A stretch of DNA of 63,560 nt, the filler included, from Chrysochromulina tobinii (lineage: Eukaryota), in NCBI GenBank assembly GCA_001275005.1. It is 10 parts of 10 records of this genome, joined end to end, with 100 filler letters (N's around TTAATTAATTAA, not from the genome) between each part and the next. Parts side by side here need not be neighbours in the genome. Positions count along the whole stretch, not along the records: positions 1 to 5,332 come from JWZX01000016.1; 9 more parts are not named here. One strand, written 5' to 3'. Below are positions 1-60,549 of this stretch, piece by piece; within the stretch, counting starts at the first letter, position 1; every line of letters starts with the position of its first letter. Under the pieces are notes generated by a model, which saw nothing but the letters and a program-made list of their open reading frames with translations, did no database searches and was not told where the DNA came from. The position numbers and the translations under genes were made by a program.

Positions 1-88
1 CCGGAGTGATTCCAGTACGGCACGACTCCAGAACTGGTCTCTTTTGCGCCGATGAGAGCTTCAAGTGGCCACCGACGGTTACGGACAT
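1..88 (+). repeat. 88-bp direct repeat, second copy at 2568-2655
   Basis: CCGGAGTGATTCCAGTACGG...GGTTACGGACAT is identical at both sites and encodes VIPVRHDSRTGLFCADESFKWPPTVTD in both ORFs. Confidence 0.95.
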
Positions 89-1710
89 GAGTCAATCCGA
101 GTACTCTCCCTCAGCAGGCAAGCAGCGTCTCGACGACACCGGACGGGACGACATCGATGAAGCTGTCCTCAAGGAGCGCGCGGCCAAGCTCGAGGCGAAG
201 GCGGTGGACGCCAAGGCCCGAGCGCAAGCCGCCAGACGAAATATGCTCGCCGATGCGCAGGCAGCCGGCGACGCCTTTGCCGAGCAGCGCCGCATGATTG
301 AAGACCTGGTGAACGACCCGGTCGTCTTTGGGGGACTGGTTGCTTTGCAAGTGGAGCACAACCGATACAGTCTTCCTGGCTCGCCGATGTACGAACGATT
401 CGTAGCGACCAGGGCAGGCAAGCCGCCGCCGCCGTTGCGCATCGTGTTCCATGGCACTGACGACGAGAACATCGAGCCTATCTTGGCAAATGGAATGGAC
501 CCGTCCAGGCGTGGTATGCACGGCCAAGTTCATGGGCCGGGAGAGTACTTTGCGACGTGCGCGCTTACGAGCGTGCGTTTCGCGCTTAGGAACCGACCCG
601 GCCGGCTCACGGGGAGGCTGCTCATCTTTCTTGTGTCGGAGAAGGAGGTTCTGCCCCAGGCCCCTGACGTTGTCGTCGTAAACGACGTGTCGCGCGAGCT
701 GCCTCTGGGCACCGTGACATTTCAAATGGCGGACGCCAAGGTGAGCGAGTTAGATGAGAAGGCCCGAAAGGCGAAGGCCGCAGCTGAGCGCGCGAAGGCC
801 GCAGCTGAGCGCACAAACTCGACGGTGCCCCTGCAGACTCAAGTGCCACCTTCACACACTCAAGTGCCACTTGGCGAGAGCCGCAGCTCCGAGGGCCATC
901 AGGCGTCATCAGGCGTCATCGGGCGTCATCAGGCGTCATCAGGCGAGAGCCGCAGCTCCGAAGAGGCACTGCGACGGGCGCTGGGACGGCGACACGCGCC
1001 TCGGTCGACAGTGACGAACCACAACCACACAGTGACGAACCTCAACCCACTGGGAGGGCGACACGCGCCTCGGTCGACTGTCGTAGCCGTGATGAAGGAG
1101 CTCAAGCGGTTCCATCAAGGCTCAAGGGGCGGCTCGGGGCGCTGTGTTGAGCGCGACGCGACCGATGGCACGGCCGACGACGCCGACGCGGACGACGACT
1201 TTCGTGCCCTTCTCCTCGACGACGCCGACGTGCTCCGCTGGCGCGTGGAGATGCGCCTTCCACCGGACTCGCTGCTCGGGGCACAGCTAGCTGCGCATGC
1301 AGCGCGCTGGGGTGGGGGCGCGGTGGTCGAGCTTGAAGTGCTCTTTGGGGACGACTTTCCCGCGTCGCCGCCCTTTGTGCGTGTCGTCTCGCCGCGCTTC
1401 GCCTTCCACACTGGCCACGTCACCGTGGGCGGCTCGATCTGCATGCAACTCCTCACGACAAGCGGCTGGGACAGCTCCTTCACCGTGGAGGCTGCCCTTG
1501 TGATGGTACGTGATGCCATGCTGAGCGGTCATGGCGCGCTCGACAGCTCGCGTGCTCACTACGGCGCCCAACCCCCTCTCCCCACAGGTACGTGACGCCA
1601 TGCTGAGCGGTCATGGCGCGCTTGACAGCTCGCGTGCTCACGTGCCATATTCAGAGGCAGAGGCAAGGCACGCGTTTCGCCGTGTAGCTAATCAGCACGG
1701 GTGGGTGTGA
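6..1710 (+). CDS. PARP-like (probably mono-) ADP-ribosyltransferase fused to a C-terminal UBE2Q-type E2 domain; intron 1506-1587; 5' end uncertain (first ATG at 87)
   Basis: ART motifs IVFHGT, HGPGEYFA and DVVVVND..ELPLGTVTF. E2 motifs FGDDFPASPPFVRVVSPRF and GHVTVGGSICMQLL (catalytic Cys). Splicing out 1506-1587 (GT..CAG) gives the UBE2Q-like tail VPYSEAEARHAFRRVANQHGWV, with TGA ending at 1710. Confidence 0.85.
874..942 (+). other. Candidate GC-AG exon-echo intron (69 bp, in frame) with (GGCGTCATCA)n body
   Basis: G|GCGAGAGCCGCAGCTCCGA ... CATCAG|GCGAGAGCCGCAGCTCCGA: a 19-bp duplication flanking 10-bp tandem repeats. Confidence 0.5.
1506..1587 (+). other. Exon-echo intron (82 bp)
   Basis: GTACGT...CCCCTCTCCCCACAG. 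Its first 54 nt repeat exon 1588-1641 with 2 mismatches, and it ends in module GTGCTCACTACGGCGCCC..CCCCACAG. Confidence 0.85.
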
Positions 1711-2260
1711 GTACGGTGCTTCACTGCAAACCAGCAAGTTACCTCTCCGTGACCGAGCTAGCGGTGATTGCGTTCATAGAGCGGGTGACGCCTGGGGGAA
1801 GCTCAAGCACTTGTCTATAGTGTCAATCTGTAGTGTCTGAAGTGTCATGCTGAGATGCGGTTCACATGTTACGCCTACCGCGCTGCCGCGCTGCCGGCGC
1901 GGCGGGGATGCACTTGGCCAGCTCTCGGGCATGCCGATTATAATTCATCATCCCGTCCCTAAAACTTGTGATGCACAGAGAAGACGGGACGGAAGTCGAG
2001 GCGGCAGACGGGCGATGCGAAATTTATTCAAGCTATTCAACAAAAGGCGGATGATTCCGAGTACGAATCGGTGACGCGGACGCGAAGCAGAACAAGGAGC
2101 GATGTTGCGGACGAGCCCGCACAGCACAAACGACCACTCACGGCCACGCTTGACGTTGCCATCTCTACTTCATGCTCAACTTACATCTCGAATCGACGAT
2201 GCGCGGGTACGTTGGATTACATTTTAAAAGAGAGAAAGAAAAAGTGTTCACAGGTCCTAG

Positions 2261-3250
2261 TTGCGCGAAAAGCGCCCGTCGCGAAATGTCGATCGGACGG
2301 GCGAGGCGCTTCTACATGTACAGGCGAGAGCGAATTCGCGAGCGCGCGCGAAGCCCCTTGGCCTTGCGGAGCAGGCCATGCAAAAGGCGCGCATCATGCA
2401 AATGCTCATTCGGGGTGATATCTATGAAGCGAGCGAGATGTACGAGGCCGTGATGCGAGCGCGCGAGCGAGAAGGCGAGGCCCGTCAGTCCTCAGTGCCA
2501 CTCTGGGCGCACGAGCTGCGTGTCTATCTGCGAGACGTCGAGCGCGAGTGCGTCGTGGCGCTCTTCCCCGGAGTGATTCCAGTACGGCACGACTCCAGAA
2601 CTGGTCTCTTTTGCGCCGATGAGAGCTTCAAGTGGCCACCGACGGTTACGGACATCAGTCATTCCATGCGACAAGGACGCCCGACTCCTCATCCTCCGGT
2701 GCGGGACCGTCCTCCGCTGCCTCCCCCGAACCGAGGGTGCTGGCACTGGCTTCGTATCTGCGGAGCAGTGGTGCTCTTCTTACTCTATGCTCTTCTTCTG
2801 TATGCCTCTGCCCAAGGAGGTCGATCAGCCGCAAGCCCCTCTGGCTCGGGCGGCGCCCGCGTGCGCATATTGCACCTCAGCCTCGCCGACTCGGACCGAC
2901 GAGCCCGCTTCGTGCTCGAGGAGAACACGGGCTGGGAGATCTTCCTCGCCGGCTGCCGCGAGCGGCTGCAGGTTGAAAACATCCGACGCGTGGCGGACTC
3001 GTCGGGTGGGTTGATCTTGGCAATCGAGGACGTCGTACACGACGATCACCTGGTCATCTACGCCACCGAGTTGGCAGCGGGTGAAGTGGCCAACGGTGAT
3101 GGCACTGTGCCCTTTGGGACCATGTTCGCGCTGCTCGTCCTCTGGTTTGGCATCTCCGTGCCGCTTGTCTTCCTCTCGGCACAGCTACTTTGGCTATACC
3201 GCGCATCCAGCACATTACCTCTCCAAAAACCAAAACAAGAAAAAAGGTAG
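2261..3250 (+). CDS. Chimeric-looking ORF: shared repeat segment + TM helix + KHA/ubiquitin-like domain + nonaspanin (TM9SF) fragment
   Basis: GTVPFGTMFALLVLWFGISVPLVFL resembles a conserved TM9SF helix. WEIFLAGCRERLQV..GGLILAIEDVVHDDHLVI resembles a KHA/beta-grasp domain. Start uncertain. Confidence 0.45.
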   Translation: MREKRPSRNVDRTGEALLHVQARANSRARAKPLGLAEQAMQKARIMQMLIRGDIYEASEMYEAVMRAREREGEARQSSVPLWAHELRVYLRDVERECVVALFPGVIPVRHDSRTGLFCADESFKWPPTVTDISHSMRQGRPTPHPPVRDRPPLPPPNRGCWHWLRICGAVVLFLLYALLLYASAQGGRSAASPSGSGGARVRILHLSLADSDRRARFVLEENTGWEIFLAGCRERLQVENIRRVADSSGGLILAIEDVVHDDHLVIYATELAAGEVANGDGTVPFGTMFALLVLWFGISVPLVFLSAQLLWLYRASSTLPLQKPKQEKR

Positions 3251-3583
3251 GCGACAGGCAGTGCGTGAGTGAAGTGCGGTGGAGTCATGGTGTTAGAATT
3301 CATGTGATGGTTATTAACGGCTGTGGACGAATTCTCTGACGGAAACAAAGCTGAGACATGATTTTTTGTGAAAACTAATAAGCCCCAAGAGCCGAACGGG
3401 CCAGCAAGCCGCATTGTGGTCCCTGCAAGCTACATGTATCATTTGTGCCATCGGAAAGTTGGATGTCGAAAACGTGGTTCGGTCTGCGGACTCTCGGCAA
3501 ATTAAACGCAATTCCACAGGGCTCTTCATCTGATTTTGGAAGCAAATTGCAGAATGCGGTTGCAGAATGCGGTGTAGTTCGTA

Positions 3584-4114
3584 ATGAATCGAAGTTGCAA
3601 CATGGGCCTCCTCATGGCCCTCGTCCCCAGCGCCTTCGGAACAACCCATCTTCGGCAAATCTTCGGGTTCCAACACATGGGCCTCGTACACGCTGCTGGC
3701 CATGCGCCTGGCGGCCATGTCGTGTGCTGCGATGGAGTGTGCAAGTTCGTGAAGGCTCAGCCAGCGCACGAGCAGCATTGGGTAGCTGACGCACATACTC
3801 TCAGCGGCACGTGCAAGTGGTTCTCACGCTCAAAGGGCTACGGCTTTATCCGCGTAAACGTCGATGGCGAATCTGTTCGCGACCTTTTCGTCCACCAAAG
3901 CGACCTGTGCAGCGGTGGGATGTGCGTCGCCCTCATTCCGGGCGAGGCCCTCGAGTTCCGTGTCTCAAAGTCGCTGATGAATGGCAAGGAGAAAGCTGCG
4001 CACATCAGCGGCCCAGGCGGCTCGCCACTTCAAGGCGTGGCCTATAATGATGACTCCGACGAGAGCTGGAGCGCTCTATTCGAACAGGTAACAGGCATTA
4101 TCATACCAAGATGA
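3584..4114 (+). CDS. Cold-shock domain protein
   Basis: GTCKWFSRSKGYGFI (RNP1), DLFVHQSDL (RNP2) and AAHISGPGGSPLQG tail typical of eukaryotic CSD proteins. Confidence 0.85.
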   Translation: MNRSCNMGLLMALVPSAFGTTHLRQIFGFQHMGLVHAAGHAPGGHVVCCDGVCKFVKAQPAHEQHWVADAHTLSGTCKWFSRSKGYGFIRVNVDGESVRDLFVHQSDLCSGGMCVALIPGEALEFRVSKSLMNGKEKAAHISGPGGSPLQGVAYNDDSDESWSALFEQVTGIIIPR

Positions 4115-5332
4115 CCCTAGTGCGCATGACCATGAGTCATGGCCCATTCTAGACAACCTTCATGCACGTGCAAGCATTATGCATAGCTCCGTGTGTCCAG
4201 GTCCATGCGGTAATGAGCAAAAGTGGCCAAGTAGAATTGTAGCCTTAGCTGGAGCAGTAGCGACGCACGGTGCGTGTCGGTGGTAGACGTCCTCGGGCGT
4301 GGCGTGATCGGTGAACGTCGCGCGAGCGCCGTCGAGCAGGCGACCGCGTGGGTGTGCACCTATAGGGGGGGTGTTGTAATGCCTCGGGTGTGCACCCATG
4401 TGGCACCACTGGCATGTGACTCGTCTCTCGTGTGAGCTCAGCTGTCTGATGTGGTCATGGATCGTACATGTGCGGTCGCCAGCACATGCGGTTTCCGAAG
4501 TGCCGACATGTGTCAAAGTCCACAAAGTCCATAACCATATGTCCATCGGTCCCATGTCGATGGTTGCCTGCGGTCGTCCAACATTGGATGTGTGTAATAC
4601 TATGCCAGCTAGCGCGTAGAGGGGTGCTGTACATGGTGCTGTATCGTCTATCGACCGCGGCGCGCGGGCGGATCCGCGCCGTCTAGTTCCACTCTAGAGT
4701 ACCCGGGACGGGTGTACCGCACCGAGTTACATGGGAACATGTGCAATCGCCCCAGATCCTCGGGACCGAGCGTCGCTCCTCCCCCCCGCGGCTAGTACGG
4801 ACAAAACGGAGACCCCCGAGCCCGACCGTCTCGATACTCGAATGAACTAGCATGAACGCGGTTAGTGAACGGTCACTGTGAGAAAAAAAGGACGTTCTCG
4901 TACGTGAGCTCGTTAAGGGATTGAATGTTTAGAAAGCCGCGGGAGCTCGCCATGGCGCGAGCCCCCTATGGTCCCACACAGTAACACACAGTACGGTACA
5001 GGTGGTAATACTGGTGGTGTCAAGGGGATGGTGGTGGGTTCGCTGAAAAGTCGCCGAACACGCGAACGTGTGTTGGCCCTGACTGCTGCGCTGAGCTTCG
5101 TGGGGTTGCTCTTGGGAGCGCCGCCATTTTGTTTTGGCGAGACAGAGATGCCTGGGCGGAACGAAACGTCTGCCGGCGAAACGTTTGCGCCCAGCAGGGC
5201 CCTGCCCCCCCGTTGGATGACGTTTGGCAAGGTCTCACCGTTGGTGTGTGCCCATGCGATAGAGACCGATAGTCTCGGTTGGTTCTTGTAGGCACACACC
5301 ACTGATCGGATATCAACCCTGCCCAGCGGGTG

Positions 5333-26885: not shown

Positions 26886-29800
26886 CTACGCATGGTACGA
26901 GCGTTCGAGGTGCATGCCCGCGCTCGGGCCGGCGACCACATGCGCGAGGGTCATCTTGGTGTCCGCGCCCTCCCTCCCCGCCGCCCGGAGCGCCTCGACC
27001 GCCTCACCGAGCAGCTGGCGCTCAAACTCGAGCAGCCGCCGCGCCACCTCCGCTTCCGTGGAGCCATGCTTCATCATCATCGTGCTGAGCGCCGTACCGA
27101 GCGCGCCCCCTCCCATCCCCTCGGCCCCCTCCGCGACGGCCGCGTCGTACCGAGCGCTCAGAACGGCGCCCTCGGCGATGGCGTCGTCGTGGCGCCGCTT
27201 GTGGGCCTCGAGCAGCGCGATCATGTGCTCCCTCGCGAGCGCCTCATCTCGGATGGGCCGCTGCAGGTTGAACTCGCGTCTCCATGCGCCGAGTAGGGGG
27301 CCATCAACGCCCTCGCCCTCTCCATTGCAGCCATCAGCCCCCTCGCCCTCCGCCGTCTTGAGCGCCGTCTTGGGCGCCGTATTGGGCACTTGTACGATGG
27401 CCGCCGCCTCGGCCACCTCGTCCTCGCGCACGAGCATCGCCCGCACCGCCGCGAACAGCGGGCATGCCTCGAGCCGATGATCGGGCACCCACCTGTGGGG
27501 AGTGAAGGGCGTCGTGGTGAGCACTTGCATGCAGCAGAACAGCGGGCATGCCTCGAGCGGTTGATCGGGCACCCACCACGCATGCATCGCTTCGTCACAT
27601 CCGATGGCTGCCTGGGCGGCGGCAAGCTCGATGCGCCACGTGTCAATGGCGGCGGTCGGCGTGGCCTTGCCCTCGCCGCCCCCACCGCCCCCGCCGCCCT
27701 CGCCGCCGCCGTCGCCACCCCATCGGCCCAGCGCGATCGCGAGGAGCTCGTGCGGGGTCACGGGCACCTGTGGGGAGGGGAGCGCGTCGTGGTGAGCACT
27801 TGCATGCGAGGAGCTCGTGCGGGGTCACGGGCACCTGTGGGGAGGGGAGCGCGTCGTGGTGAGCACTTGCATGCGCGCACCTCGGCGGTGTGAAGCACAC
27901 CGCCGGGCGTCGTGGTGAGCACTTGCATGCGCGCACCTCGGCGGTGTGCAGCACCGACGTCGCGTCAAAGAAGCCATAGCGCTCGAAGAAGTCGAGATAA
28001 TCGCCCTCGTCCACCGAGATCGAGATTGCATCTCCCGCCGAGAGCGTGAATTCCGCATGTAACGCCACGCACGTCGCGTCGGCGCCAAGGCGTAAGGAGG
28101 CCACCGGCCCAACCTGATGAGGAAGGCAATCATAGGTCATCATAGGCAATCAGAGGCAATCAAGGTGAGTGGTTCACAGGAGGCCACCGGCCCAACCGAG
28201 GCATGCGCGGCGAGGTCGATGAGCGGGCAGAGGGCGAGGCCGTCGAGGCCCTCCACGCGGCGTGCACGTGTCTGCGTGAGAAGCGCCGCCCAACGGAAAC
28301 GAGCTTCGTCCCAGTAGACAATCGAGAGGTTCAAAGCTGACAGCACAGCCAGTCGCTCCGCCTCCACCCGTCGCCGCCACGCGCGCGCGCGGTGCCACGC
28401 GACGCAGTGCCGCAGGAGGCGCGCCGCGGCGCTGCCCTCCTCCCAAGCGGCCAACATGGCTGATTCGAGCCGCTCGGGCGGCGCCAAGCGCGCAAAGTAC
28501 GCCGCGCGAGCGTCGGGCAGGCAAGCTGGGGCTTCTTGGGCGCGTAGGCATGTGTTGGCGGATGGGCTGCTCGCGTCGTGTCGAGCGGATGGGCTGCTCG
28601 CGTCGTGTCGAGCGGATGTGTCAAGCAGCCGCAGCAGCGCCACGAACAAGCGCCCATCCTCACGCACGGCAACGCTCGCCTCGTCGCTCGCCTTCTCCAA
28701 GCCGCCCAACGCCTGCACGCGCGCCACCACCGCCGCCCACTCGGGCTCCGGCACCTCGGATGCCAAGACGCACGCCGCGAGGGGGATGGAGAGTAGCGTG
28801 TCGCCGCACGCACAGCCGGCGCCGGCATGCAGTGAGGCGCCTCGGGCAGAGTTGGGGCGTACCTGTGGGGAGTGGAGGGCGTCGCGGTGAGCACTTGCAT
28901 GCAGCCGCGGGCAGCGTTGGGGCGTACCTCGAGGGTGTGGGAAGTGGCCAACGTCGCCAGCGCGGCCGTCGCATGCGCGGCGCGGTCATCGGCCTCGAGT
29001 ACAGCCCACATGCGTACCCTCCGATGCGCCACCCACGCCGCCATCGCCTCTCGCCGCACCACCGCCTCGGCCACCATCCCATGCTGTCTGAGGGCCGCGT
29101 TCAACGCCGACGCCTCCCGCGCGAGCTCCGGCGTCTCGAGCCAGCACAGCCTCGCGCACCTGTGGGGAGGGGGGGAGGGCGTCGTGGTGAGCACTTGCAT
29201 GCAAGCAGTCTCGAGCCAGCACAGCCTAGCGCACCGAGAGCGCAGCACGCGACCGAGCTCCGCGAGCTCCGCGTGGTACGCGAAGAGGGCGGCGGCCCCG
29301 GCCGCGGAGAGCGCTGTGCTGGGCACGGGCCGCGAGTCGAGCCACGCACGCAGCCACGCGGGATCGAGGAAGACGACCGCGTCCGCGCCGTGGTGAGCGT
29401 CCGCGCCGTGGTGAGCGTCCGCGCCGTGGTGAGCGTCAGCGCCGTGGTGAGCGTCCGCGCCGTGGTGAGCGTCAGCGCCGTGGTGAGCGTCAGCGCTGTG
29501 ATGAGCATCAGCGCCGGTCGCTCCGCCGCCACGGCCGCTGTCGGCGTCGCCGCTGCCAGCGTCTCCGCCGCTGCCAGCATCGCCGCTGTTGTCAGCCCCT
29601 ACGCTGGTCGTCGGCGTGGTCGTCGACGTGGTCGTCAGCGTGGGTGGCGTCGCGCGCCATCCCGGGCGCCATCGGAGGTCGAGCCGCGTGTCGGCACTGT
29701 CGAGGGTGGCGTTGGCGGGCACGGTGGGCGTCGTCGGCGGGCTCGGCATTGGCAGCCGTGCCGCGAGCGCCGGGCGCGCGCCTGTGGGGAGGGCGAGGGC

Positions 29801-30929
29801 GCCGTGGTGAGCACTTGCATGCGCGCACCTCGGCGGTGTGCAGCACCGCCGGGCGTCGTGCTGAGCACTTGCATGCGCGCACCTCGGAGCATCTCATGCA
29901 GCCCCATGGCGAAGGGGAAGTTGTGATCGACCAGCTGTGCCCATAAGCTTATGGAGCCTGAGCGCGGCTGAGCGCATAGCGCGGCTGGGGCCATGAAGTT
30001 CTGCGAGACGGCGGAGGTCCACTCGAGATTGACGACGGCGTGATGCCAGCCGGCTGGGATGAAGACCATGTCGCCCGCCCCCTGCACGCACCTGTGGGGA
30101 GGCGAGGGCGCCGTGGTGAGCACTTGCATGCGCGCACCTCACGAAGACCATGTCGCCCGGCCCCTTGCACGCACTCGAGCATCGTGAGCTTGCCCGCCAC
30201 CGCGCTCCGCTGCAGCCGCGGATGCTCATCCAAGAACCAGCAAACGGGCAGCTGATGCTTTCCTTGGGCAAAGTGCTCGAGACCGTGCACGGCCATGTCG
30301 GTCTCGGGCGCGAGCATGCACCAGCGCTTGCGCCCGGCCAGGCACACGTTCCACGCGCTCGTGCACAGCGGGTCCACGTGCAGGAAGGTGCCGCTGCGCG
30401 CGCCGCCAAAGAAGCAGTAGCGCGCGCGCTTCGAGCCTGGGATCTCCGCGAGGAGGTCGTCGGCGAAGAAGGAGGGCGGCGCGAAGTCGTCGAGCAGCGC
30501 CGCGCGCTCGCCCTGGAAGCTGCGCTCCACCAGGTAGTATGGCGAGTCGGCCGCGTTGTTCGCTGCGTACTCCACGTACTCGCGCAGCGGCAGCCGCACA
30601 TCATCAGCAAGGTCCATCTCAAAGTCGCCATAGTGCGCCACGAGCGCCTCGGCGCTCGACCACCGCTCGGCTGCGCGCCAGCCCCACGCCTTGGCGGCGC
30701 CGCGCATCACAAAGGGCGTCGTACGCGCGCTCAGGCTCGCCGCGAGAGGCTGCTCCGCCGCATCCACGCGGAGCTCCTCCATCGTCGTCGCCGCCGGTGG
30801 CGCAGCACCCAGGCTATCGACAACGCGGACGGCCTCCTCGCCACGCTCACGAATGTTGTGCAGAGTCGAGCTGCCGAGCGGCTCCAGCCAGCGTCGGGCC
30901 ATCGGCGAGGTTGGCTCCGAGAACTCCAT
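26886..30929 (-). CDS. JMJD6-like JmjC oxygenase fused to a degenerate Rubisco-LSMT-type SET domain; 8 exons: 30929-30175, 30091-29883, 29781-29235, 29159-28928, 28862-28197, 28113-27937, 27767-27577, 27492-26886
   Basis: Exons sum to 3384 nt (1127 aa + stop) with consistent phases. JmjC: GTFLHVDPLCTSAWN, GRKRW, FIPAGWHHAVVNLE. SET-like: RGASLHA..GDTLLSIP, LCPLIDLAAH, AGDAISIS..FFERYGF. Confidence 0.85.
27493..27576 (-). other. Exon-echo intron (84 bp, in frame)
   Basis: 40-bp echo GTGGGTGCCCGATCA.C.GCTCGAGGCATGCCCGCTGTTC plus module ..CTCCCCACAG. Confidence 0.85.
27768..27936 (-). other. Compound intron: two abutting units 27936-27835 and 27834-27768 joined by AG/GT, three module copies
   Basis: Removal gives HTAE|VPVTPHELLAIA. 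A 67-bp tandem duplication spans the acceptor. Confidence 0.85.
28114..28196 (-). other. Exon-echo intron of a second family (83 bp; GATTGCC-repeat body, CCTCATCAG acceptor)
   Basis: TCG|GTTGGGCCGGTGGCCTCCT..GATTGCCTCTGATTGCCTATGATGACCTATGATTGCCTTCCTCATCAG|GTTGGGCCGGTGGCCTCCT. Confidence 0.88.
28863..28927 (-). other. Exon-echo intron (65 bp)
   Basis: GAG|GTACGCCCCAACGCTGCCCGCGGC..module..CCCCACAG|GTACGCCCCAACTCTGCCCGAGGC. Removal fixes the frame into the SET N-terminus. Confidence 0.9.
29160..29234 (-). other. Exon-echo intron (75 bp, in frame)
   Basis: 27-bp echo GTGCGC(T/G)AGGCTGTGCTGGCTCGAGAC plus module. The unspliced ORF reads CARLCWLET-ACMQVLTTTPSPPPHR-CARLCWLET. Confidence 0.85.
29379..29515 (-). 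repeat. 18-bp coding minisatellite (GADAHH)x7
   Basis: Unit GCTCACCACGGCGC(G/T)GAC on the minus strand. Confidence 0.92.
29782..29882 (-). other. Module-family intron (101 bp), near-copy of intron 27835-27936
   Basis: CCGAG|GTGCGCGCATGCAAGTGCTC..CCCCACAG|GC. Removal joins the JmjC frame to the MPSPPT frame. Confidence 0.88.
30092..30174 (-). other. Exon-echo intron (83 bp)
   Basis: GA|GTGCGTGCAAGGGGCCGGGCGACATGGTCTTC..GCATGCAAGTGCTCACCACGG..CCCCACAG|GTGCGTGCAGGGGGCGGGCGACATGGTCTTC. Removal restores LECVQGAGDMVFIPAGWHH. Confidence 0.9.
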
Positions 30930-59420: not shown

Positions 59421-60549
59421 GGAGCACTGTGCGGTCTCGCGTGTGTCGTACCGGGCATCTTGTGTGCATCATGTAGGTTTCCGTACTGAAGTGTGCGTCA
59501 TACGTCGTCCACTCTTTAACTTAGGATCGCACACCACTCTATAAGAGACACACCATTGATAACAGGCAAGAGAATGTGTTTTGGAGCTCGAATTGTGGAG
59601 CTGTGTGGCCTAATGGTTGACAGGTCGATATTCGAGGCGAAGCCGGATTTCGATGCACATCTCCAAAGATCGCGAGACAGCACATAGCTGGAGGGCCATG
59701 GATCGAGTCTAGGGACTATATGGAGTCATACAACACAGAAAATCACGCCATCCCAAGTCACTCTGCATGGCCCTAGTACCGAAATGCGACCAAAACGCGA
59801 CCTCACAGGCCGTACTTGGGGTCACACTGTGACATCTGAGTGGCGACAGTGACTTGAGATGGTGTGGTTCTCTGTGCTGTATGACTCCATATAGTCCCTA
59901 GACTCGATCTATGGCCCTCCAGCTATGTGCTGTCTCGCGATCTTTGGAGATGTGCATCGAAATTGACCTTGGACGATAAGTAGGTCGACATTCGAGCCGA
60001 GGCCGGATTTCGATGCACATCTCCAAAGATCGCGAGACAGCACATAGCTGGAGGGCCCTAGATCGAGTCTAGGGACTATATGGAGTCATACAACACAGAT
60101 AATCACGCCATCACAAGTCGCTTTGCATGGCCCTAGTACCGAAATGCGACCAAAACGCGACCTCACAGGCCGTTCTCGGGGTCACAATGTGACATCTGAG
60201 TGGCGACAGTGACTTGAGATGGCGTGATTTTCTGTCCTGTACGACTCCATATAGTCCCTAGACTCGATCTATGGCCCTCCAGCTATGTGCTGTCTCGCGA
60301 TCTTTGGAGATGTGCATCGAAATCCGGCTTCGCCTCGAATATCGACCTGTCAACCATTTGGCCACACAGCTCCACAATTCGAGCTCCAAAACACGTTCTC
60401 TCGCCTGTTATCGATGGTGTGTCTCTTATAGAGTGGTGTGCGATCCTAAGTTAAAGAGTGGACGACGTATGACGCACACTTCAGTACGGAAACCTACATG
60501 ATGCACACAAGATGCCCGGTACGACACATGCGAGTATGCACAGTGCTCC
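59421..60549. mobile_element. Fold-back / long-TIR non-autonomous element with an internal tandem dimer of hairpins
   Basis: ~340-bp imperfect terminal inverted repeats (GGAGCACTGTG...CACAGTGCTCC). Internal 360-bp direct repeat, each unit with ~115-bp inverted arms. No coding capacity. Confidence 0.85.

Follow-up and report, generated by a model that had tools for sequence, protein, structure and literature searches.

A PARP-UBE2Q Fusion Gene Interrupted by a Short, Probably Spliced Intron

We analyzed a 63,560-nt stretch of DNA from the haptophyte Chrysochromulina tobinii (GenBank assembly GCA_001275005.1), hereafter the window, which consists of ten contigs spaced by N's. The finding reported here concerns an 82-nt intron in the first of these contigs (positions 1-5332; the DNA is eukaryotic, with 64% G+C), within a gene that we refer to as PARP-E2. 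This intron combines a duplicated piece of the following exon with the end of a repeated module that is found in many other introns.

Exon 1 (3..1505, plus strand) is a listed open reading frame (ORF) that is open at its 5' end, at the contig start, and covers a PARP catalytic domain followed by the N-terminal two thirds of a UBE2Q-type ubiquitin-conjugating enzyme (E2), with the E2 active-site Cys within GGSICMQLL. Exon 2 (1588..1710, plus) adds 40 codons and a stop (1708-1710). Between them lies the intron (1506..1587, plus), of 82 nt, with GT..AG ends and in phase 0, base 1506 being the first of a codon; it was delimited by a direct repeat and by RNA and DNA contigs, and consists of a duplicated exon start plus a truncated module. 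In Pfam searches exon 1 alone gave PARP at E=8.4e-09 and UQ_con at E=6.1e-06 (26.3 bits, slightly below the 27-bit cut-off), and the read-through frame gave 35.5 bits for PARP (cut-off 26.7) and 28.9 bits for UQ_con (cut-off 27). The unspliced frame ends ...RAHYGAQPPLPTGT, with its stop at 1593-1595.

Removal of 1506-1587 gives a translation ending ...RAHVPYSEAEARHAFRRVANQHGWV, the last part of which, ...SSRAHVPYSEAEARHAFRRVANQHGWV, also ends the homologues P0002, P0003, P0042, and P0043, from the same lineage and beyond. A further homologue (P0044) was aligned with the UBE2Q2 and UBE2Q1 structures (1zuo and 2qgx) through residue 224/227, where the restored tail corresponds to the last helix. 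This agrees with the claim of a preliminary description of the window that splicing restores an E2 C-terminus. With its PARP domain, UBC fold including the Cys, and C-terminal helix, PARP-E2 is predicted to encode a UBE2Q-type ubiquitin-conjugating enzyme fused to a PARP domain. The closest named protein, an entry named Chrysochromulina in the EukProt Chrpa1 set, is 84% identical in the best local alignment.

Structure of the Insert

A repeat search of the window paired 1505-1559 with 1587-1641 (55 nt, 96% identical, 82 nt apart), and from the GT onward 52 of 54 bases agree between 1506-1559 and 1588-1641. The first part of the intron (1506..1559, plus), here called the echo, is the upstream copy of this 54-nt target duplication, and the start of exon 2 is the downstream copy. 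The opening bases of the echo, GTACGT, would act as the 5' splice site. Both differences between the copies (1514 T/1596 C, giving GAT/GAC, and 1541 C/1623 T, giving CTC/CTT) are synonymous, as had been noted before, and both copies encode VRDAMLSGHGALDSSRAH. Comparison with RNA contigs identifies the exon T at 1623 as the derived state; the older C is kept in the upstream duplicate.

The rest of the intron is the module tail (1560..1587, plus), which combines a conserved ACGGCGCC block with a C-rich tract and ends in CACAG as its 3' splice site. With up to three mismatches allowed, the window contains this stretch a single time, against 0 occurrences expected. Where echo and tail meet, the 8-mer GTGCTCAC (1552..1559, plus) is assignable to either of them according to the module alignment and constitutes the junction microhomology; exon 2 has its own GTGCTCAC at 1634-1641. 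When the insert was aligned with seven intron copies at 27.4-30.2 kb (minus strand), homology extended from GTGCTCAC to CACAG, with none upstream of the 8-mer. The bases just before it (1544-1551) are exon-derived and show no similarity to GCATGCAA, the core of the module. CTCAC within GTGCTCAC, about 28 nt from the 3' splice site, is a likely branch-site motif.

Several lines of comparison place this tail in a larger family. The 28-nt tail of one metagenome copy (L043) differs from 1560-1587 at 2 of 28 positions without gaps, by manual count. TACGGCGCC, directly after the 8-mer, is common to the PARP-E2 copy and 10 of the 118 listed non-redundant family copies described below, and all ten have the core just upstream (as GCATGCAA or GCATGCAT in eight, with one or two changes in the other two). 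In two DNA runs, 8 and 9 other contigs fit from 1552 onward and read ...GCATGCAA immediately before that position; therefore, full-length relatives of the PARP-E2 module tail exist in the same culture. Both DNA runs also contain 1496-1587 and 1563-1656 with 0 differences, so the structure of the insert is not an assembly artefact. The PARP-E2 copy shares with the family its tail, a GT-initial duplicate, CACAG followed by the same sequence again, and its length, sense, and phase. What it lacks is GCATGCAA directly 5' of GTGCTCAC. From these alignments it is well supported as a family member truncated at its 5' end exactly at the shared 8-mer, and the earlier account of a 54-bp echo running into a truncated module at this point holds up in the alignment, the L043 tail, and the DNA contigs.

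We also considered an origin that needs no mobile family, in which local tandem duplication of a GT-containing exon piece made the intron and 1560-1587 came to look like the module because pyrimidine tracts and 3' splice sites converge. Tandem duplication of an exon piece containing AGGT is one of the known models of how introns are born, and C-rich tracts ending in CAG are common in introns here (e.g., 28114-28196). However, the 28 nt do not derive from the exon, intron-less homologues lack them, and only two ungapped differences separate them from the family copy over a stretch that includes the non-pyrimidine block ACGGCGCC. This origin is already contradicted by these data and we consider it scarcely credible. 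A structured-element reading of 1496-1600 was rejected because the predicted RNA fold is no more stable than that of shuffled sequences (z = -0.12); Rfam gave no match in 1-5332 at E up to 1.

Two observations touch on the sequence around the junction. The related read-through protein P0036 ends ...SSRANYGAQPPLPTGT instead of ...SSRAHYG..., which implies that GCTAAC replaces GCTCAC at the end of the duplicate in that strain; GCTAAC is a textbook branch-site motif, and this would fit the 8-mer as branch region. Within exon 1, at 1441-1456, the sequence reads GCATGCAA then CTCCTCAC, a 14/16 match to the module core located 65 nt upstream of the intron, in the E2 active-site codons.

Transcripts and Empty Sites

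Six RNA runs and two DNA runs were compared with the window. Four of the six RNA runs yielded a contig of the joined form, placed at 1504/1587 in X13, X15, and X17 (moving the cut by +1 gives GT..AG) and at 1541/1624, with the same 82-nt period, in X18. The retained form was found in none of the six; the pieces from X14 and X16 stop short of the junction (ending at 1497 and 1462, respectively). Both DNA runs (X1 and X2) contain the insert and neither contains the joined form. The insert is likewise present in DNA encoding four related read-through proteins (P0001, P0035, P0036, and P0037).

RNA is not decisive on splicing, because an intron-less gene copy is also present in DNA. Closely related gene copies have the 54 nt once and no insert. 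P0042 and P0043, encoded on contigs of 33 and 41 kb, are each a single uninterrupted frame, of 994 and 971 amino acids (aa), and cross the site without a break, reading ...SSRAHVPYSE...; therefore, the empty site exists as DNA. The X18 contig bears marks of this intron-less copy (e.g., 1494 G>A, giving EATLVM) and the X17 contig bears its 12-nt and 69-nt differences and its insertions and deletions in the 3' untranslated region (UTR), so neither is informative on splicing. The contigs from X13 and X15 share the 3'UTR form of the window and leave out precisely 82 nt, bounded by GT..AG; over 340 and 375 aligned nt they show 2 and 3 differences from it (99.2-99.4% identity). We take them as moderate evidence for splicing of 1506-1587, although their C at 1623, against T in the window, marks them as derived from another strain. 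The 1505/1588 junction expected from the preliminary description is thus seen as a joined form in four RNA runs, two of whose contigs derive from the intron-less copy and none of which has the window haplotype.

Could the insert instead remain unspliced, this gene copy being a rearranged paralogue in decay, with its protein terminated by the stop at 1593-1595? The gene is indeed rearranged relative to the full-length form, its haplotype is not matched exactly by any RNA contig, and gene callers read through to ...RAHYGAQPPLPTGT in 4 related contigs. On the other hand, GT..AG ends, a length usual for the family, and a motif resembling a branch site are all present in the insert; the RNA contigs with the window-type 3'UTR skip precisely the 82 nt; and exon 2 keeps an intact 40-codon frame and the same stop as its homologues, with one residue changed. 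We regard the unspliced alternative as improbable, and 1506-1587 is likely to be spliced out, restoring the E2 C-terminus.

A Many-Copy Family of Module-Bearing Introns

The intron family had been proposed to extend beyond one gene, and this is supported by one scan of metagenomes with the pattern GTGCTCAC, 10-24 free bases, and CTCCCCACAG, which recovered at least 129 loci and at least 118 non-redundant copies (by downstream exon). GCATGCAA, with up to two mismatches, directly precedes GTGCTCAC in 129 of the 148 listed matches and is missing from 19. The excluded core-less matches that could be viewed mostly have unrelated upstream flanks, with no core or GT-start copy, the echo test not having been applied to them. 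In 96 of the 118 listed non-redundant copies the exon start is duplicated upstream with a score of at least 10, and nearly all listed copies share one layout: duplicated exon start, then module, then CACAG and exon. These are many near-identical copies that occur as introns in unrelated genes (at least 118, with different flanking exons), and in this respect the family agrees with introners, the mobile elements that generate introns.

Gapped analysis covered 90 listed copies, after introns longer than 130 nt were dropped; removal of five tandem-unit cases left 85 for most statistics. The duplicate has a median length of 31.5 nt (range 10-72, 93% identity) among the 90, and it begins with GT in 79 of them (consensus of the first six bases GTGCGC) and follows an exon G in 74. 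It is perfect in 24 of the 85 non-tandem copies, from which we conclude that the family is young; it is also abundant in cultures and lakes. Listed introns are 65-100 nt long (median 78), a range into which the 82 nt of PARP-E2 fit, with the 5' splice site 36.5 +/- 6.8 nt from the core. Duplicate length and filler length are negatively correlated (r = -0.67), which may mean that selection does not tolerate introns below about 65 nt.

Stop codons did not discriminate the coding strand of the flanks, as in DNA so rich in GC both strands were open in 45 of 82 copies; they were replaced by codon-position GC, which classed 85 of the listed flanks as sense coding and 13 as antisense. Where both flanks were sense (24 listed copies), the frame is continuous after removal in 20, of which 14 are in phase 0.

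In the window itself, six module-bearing introns were recognized by sequence comparison in a JmjC-domain gene on the minus strand (30092-30174, 29782-29882, 29160-29234, 28863-28927, 27768-27936, and 27493-27576), together with an intron of the same duplicate-flanked layout and a different insert (28114-28196, minus). With the seven introns removed the gene forms a single frame of 1170 aa; with them kept, the frame reaches at most 520 aa.

Some further observations concern the distribution of the family. The six module introns of the JmjC-domain gene lie within 2.7 kb (27493-30174, minus) and the remaining 60 kb of the window hold one; this clustering, together with an exon piece taken from the site of another intron (see below), suggests local spread within the gene. 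The intron at 28114-28196 is a second kind of duplicate-flanked intron, with an 18-19-nt copy of the next exon and an insert of roughly 10-nt repeats such as TGATTGCCTC or TGATGACCTC in place of the module; similar repeat tracts lie upstream of module copies at the metagenome loci L015, L080, L120, and L121. Outside module cores, GCATGC occurs 30 times in the 150-nt flanks of family members against 12.6 expected from the window background, a crude control (Poisson P = 2e-5). This excess and the core-like 1441-1456 hint that targets may resemble the module.

Microhomology at the Junctions

The exact 8-nt overlap of the PARP-E2 copy has a chance of roughly 1e-5 to 1e-4 of arising at one given junction. 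Across the family we measured overlaps at 19 listed junctions whose duplicate reaches or enters the core, setting aside L099, which has an imperfect 9-nt overlap. The lengths were 0 nt (3 junctions), 1 nt (4), 2 nt (8), 3 nt (3), and 6 nt (1), with a mean of 1.84 nt compared with 0.51 nt at random positions of the same exons (P about 5e-5, 100,000 draws). All eight two-base overlaps leave the GC intact, which homology-blind trimming of modules by two bases would give only about one time in ten.

We also compared filler junctions, using unrelated copies as stand-ins for the donor. A looser version of this test (23 of 65 copies informative, mean 3.17 versus 1.35) was set aside as inflated by a probably paralogous pair (L081/L119) and by trivially short gaps; the stricter version is taken up below. 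Selection for a branch site as the sole cause of the 8-mer was rejected, as a short degenerate motif would suffice for branching and would not need an exact, in-register 8-nt match.

Because overlaps exceed chance (1.84 versus 0.51), microhomology joining is supported for the PARP-E2 copy and, weakly, across the family. The preliminary description went further and ascribed the junction to microhomology-mediated template switching. Its expectation that overlaps would exceed those of shuffled sequence is borne out in one metagenome scan, rather than genome-wide (P about 5e-5 at the core junctions and P = 0.0275 in the stricter filler test), while template switching itself is only one of several routes to the same junction.

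Donor Flanks and Reshaped Copies

Some copies contain clues to the template from which they were made. The JmjC intron at 29782-29882 holds a stretch matching the exon end beside the intron at 27768-27936, 1.9 kb away, and by eye its target GCGCGCGC overlaps the GTGCGCGC of that donor in 7 of 8 bases. In the intron at 30092-30174, GAG stands before the GTGCGC of the module, as it does at the donor site 27768-27936, which itself holds tandem units of 56 and 67 nt. Arrays of exon end plus module 5' half are found at L064, L067, and L078, the duplicate of L039 runs, by eye, into a piece of module at GTGCT, and several filler strings are common to sub-sets of copies. Donor flanks, arrays, and short-homology switches together point to a polymerase that copied another family member along with its flanks and switched at short homologies. 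As donor flanks were carried along, the template would have been DNA or pre-mRNA rather than an excised intron. Excised-intron (lariat) RNA was rejected as the template because copies in the JmjC-domain gene carry exon bases from upstream of the donor's 5' splice site. A retroposon-like route is compatible with the same evidence.

Origin of the PARP-E2 Intron

We propose, with a probability of about 0.5, that 1506-1587 belongs to a many-copy intron-making family and arose when the splice-signal module was synthesised into a break in PARP-E2, with duplication of 54 nt and a join primed at the shared GTGCTCAC. A DNA end or nascent strand ending ...GTGCTCAC would have paired with the same 8 nt of a different family member and been extended along it as far as its end; synthesis would then have returned to the gene at the GT lying 54 nt upstream, yielding the arrangement duplicate-module-duplicate. 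Copying that began inside the module would leave out at least the first 16 nt of the core (GCATGCAA and anything preceding it), and the exon's own GTGCTCAC would take the place of the likely branch-site motif of the module. The C-rich tract and the 3' splice site CACAG come from the module, and the first GT of the upstream duplicate stands at the required 5' splice-site position; splicing of 1505 to 1588 would restore the original reading frame exactly.

A number of results weigh against this proposal. Truncation of the core is rare, with no other listed copy cut at or beyond GTGCTCAC, in data biased by a scan pattern that required GTGCTCAC and to which copies truncated beyond the 8-mer were invisible. 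Truncation is thus not a routine outcome of insertion, and the PARP-E2 copy may have been reshaped later. Its 54-nt duplicate is longer than that of any of the 85 non-tandem listed copies (maximum 49), in an intron of ordinary total length (82 nt). In most listed junctions (65 of 85) the duplicate is separated from the core by 1-46 nt of other sequence, and overlaps outside PARP-E2 are mostly of 1-3 nt, which any end-joining route can produce. The stricter filler-junction test, in which only 6 of 48 copies (gap of at least 3 nt) were informative, gave a mean overlap of 1.33 against 0.56 +/- 0.31 (P = 0.0275). All RNA contigs have C at 1623 and none has the window haplotype, such that splicing of this very allele is not directly shown. 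Finally, neither a donor copy nor an enzyme was identified. Template switching in particular is not proven: capture during end joining, retroposon-like attachment of the 5' end, and later slippage deletion between GTGCTCAC copies would all give the same sequence.

The last of these routes starts from an ordinary insertion, with a long duplicate and a full module including GCATGCAA, from which replication slippage between the exon-derived and the module GTGCTCAC later deleted the intervening part. Deletions commonly arise between short direct repeats that lie a few bases from each other, the 129 of 148 matches with a full core make truncation at insertion atypical, and the tandem units at 27768-27936 and the module 5'-half arrays indicate that secondary reshaping is frequent in the family. 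Yet in the precursor the duplicate would have measured at least 54 nt and the intron at least 98 nt, beyond all but one of the 85 non-tandem listed copies (duplicates reach 49 nt, and a single intron reaches 100). Two rare events would be required instead of one, and the four related read-through proteins already show the truncated form of the insert, with no precursor form among them. We consider this history unlikely, though worth keeping in view.

A SINE-like (short interspersed element) retroposon would insert by target-primed reverse transcription, with a nick before the GT, copying from a fixed 3' end, a second nick 10-60 nt downstream, and the 5' end of the complementary DNA joined at GTGCTCAC. 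It would account for the constant 3' end, the variable duplications (10-72 nt), the extra bases and short microhomologies at the 5' junction, and the sense-strand bias. A constant 3' end, variable duplication, and 5' filler or microhomology are marks of LINE-1 and Alu 5' junctions. In the family there is, however, no 3' poly(A) or simple-repeat tail, all copies ending in CACAG, and 5' truncation is rare, features at odds with a non-LTR (long terminal repeat) or SINE-like element; no reverse-transcriptase partner turned up in the window or the loci, though no systematic search was made for one. Carried exon bases from upstream of the donor's 5' splice site and locus-specific tandem arrays also count against it. 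In favor of such a route, introners derived from non-LTR retrotransposons make up about 5% of the classified examples according to a 2025 survey (PMC12130899). For the PARP-E2 intron we judge this route quite unlikely. Nor does the family resemble introners of the terminal-inverted-repeat (TIR) DNA-transposon type, with no inverted termini among the aligned copies, by inspection, and a duplication of 10-72 nt in place of a fixed short one.

Extended from PARP-E2 to the family, template switching leads to a more tentative and rather doubtful idea, that these introns may multiply without a dedicated transposase or reverse transcriptase. A splice-signal module of about 45 nt would be copied out of one gene and into a break in another by polymerases of the host, acting in repair or replication, through microhomology-primed template switching that duplicates 10-60 nt of the target. 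Such a process could feed itself: every copy precedes an exon starting GT(G/A)CG, so the switch back would meet similar exon sites and create the next 5' splice site.

Other Features of the Window

Several observations concern the organization of the PARP-E2 gene and its surroundings. A 98-nt stretch at the contig start (1-98) recurs at 2568-2665, 98% identical, inside the next ORF (2261-3250). Compared with the full-length form P0042, the gene at 3-1710 is rearranged, with GVIPVRHDS..KWPPT and MSQSEY.. segments preceding the PARP domain; it is without the linker between the PARP and E2 domains, part of which was found in the downstream ORF 2261-3250. The gene has the look of a paralogue that has been rearranged, or of a tandem array disrupted in assembly. 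At 981-1081 the window has an in-frame 69-nt coding repeat (23 residues) that is skipped in the X13 and X17 RNA contigs and absent from P0001 and P0035. Its ends (GG..CT or GG..AG) identify it as a copy-number difference between gene copies, not an intron. In the 3'UTR (1763-1883), RNA contigs of three runs jump back 33 nt (1795 to 1763) and two skip 43 nt (1799 to 1843); three RNA contigs all depart from the window at 1883 with identical 19 loose letters. We attribute these differences to strain differences or further processing. Elsewhere in the window, a short contig holds a tandem repeat (59642-60361) with a 360-nt period, the two units of which are about 90% alike and each contain mutually reverse-complementary sequences.

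Significance and Comparison With Known Systems

In the study of intron evolution it is an open question by what means introners move when they have neither inverted repeats nor short fixed duplications, and recent surveys list many such families as of "unknown mechanism." The footprint of the present family is unusually legible, with long copy-specific duplications, a 3' end that is constant and doubles as the 3' splice site, an opposite junction marked by filler and microhomology, carried donor flanks, and filled and empty versions of one site in close gene copies. As the family is young and abundant, insertion polymorphisms could allow events to be reconstructed base by base. The PARP-E2 copy is the clearest single junction: it was likely joined at an 8-base match, too long to be a coincidence, where the exon's own sequence can stand in for the missing part of the module, and it gives a hint of the way in which such introns arise. 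A practical consequence is that gene callers miss family introns and truncate proteins, as with PARP-E2.

Among known routes to new introns, tandem duplication of an AGGT-containing exon segment is a model of intron birth, and new introns in Daphnia are flanked by short repeats from break repair. These resemble the present family in drawing a splice site from duplicated exon sequence and in the causal role proposed for break repair; what sets the family apart is that at more than 100 sites the 3' half of the intron comes from one specific repeated module. Target-primed insertion of LINE-1 and Alu resembles it in the fixed 3' end, the variable target duplication, and the 5' end truncated at microhomology, whereas the family has no poly(A) tail and no known reverse-transcriptase partner, is rarely truncated, and carries donor exon bases. 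Template switching at stalled forks (FoSTeS), break-induced replication mediated by microhomology (MMBIR), and polymerase-theta end joining share with it a short duplication with a templated insert, microhomology at switch points, a nearby related template, and arrays from serial back-switching. Those events are sporadic rearrangements, in contrast to a many-copy intron family. A full-text literature search returned no paper presenting microhomology template switching or break repair as the engine of such a family, and none linking introners to long variable duplications or to microhomology.

Among described introners, the 2025 catalogue (PMC12130899) lists C. tobinii with 0 families. In 12 of its 14 files there is no C. 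parva-like genome, and the haptophyte rows (Emiliania, Pavlovales) hold nothing like the present family. Nearest in style within its supplementary files 7 and 8 is Emiliania huxleyi fam24, annotated "co-opt 5' carry 3'" and "10bp terminal direct repeats," which has 5 copies and a fixed short repeat, unlike the present family. Introner family 5 of Chrysochromulina sp., from a TARA metagenome-assembled genome (MAG), belongs to the same haptophyte genus and likewise is without inverted repeats (Gozashti et al., 2022; PMC9860276). Its duplication is of 4 bp, and it brings the 5' splice site while co-opting the 3' one; in the present family these roles are reversed and the duplication is long and variable. 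The introner-like elements of classes 4 and 5 in Symbiodinium and Polarella glacialis have terminal inverted repeats and a fixed 4-nt duplication (GHNN) (bioRxiv 10.1101/2020.10.14.339549), whereas the present family has no such repeats and a variable duplication of 10-72 nt, with filler and microhomology upstream. In both systems, however, the element brings along the 3' splice site, with one duplication copy's 5' end serving as the 5' site, an intron is made in one orientation only, and its removal restores the message exactly.

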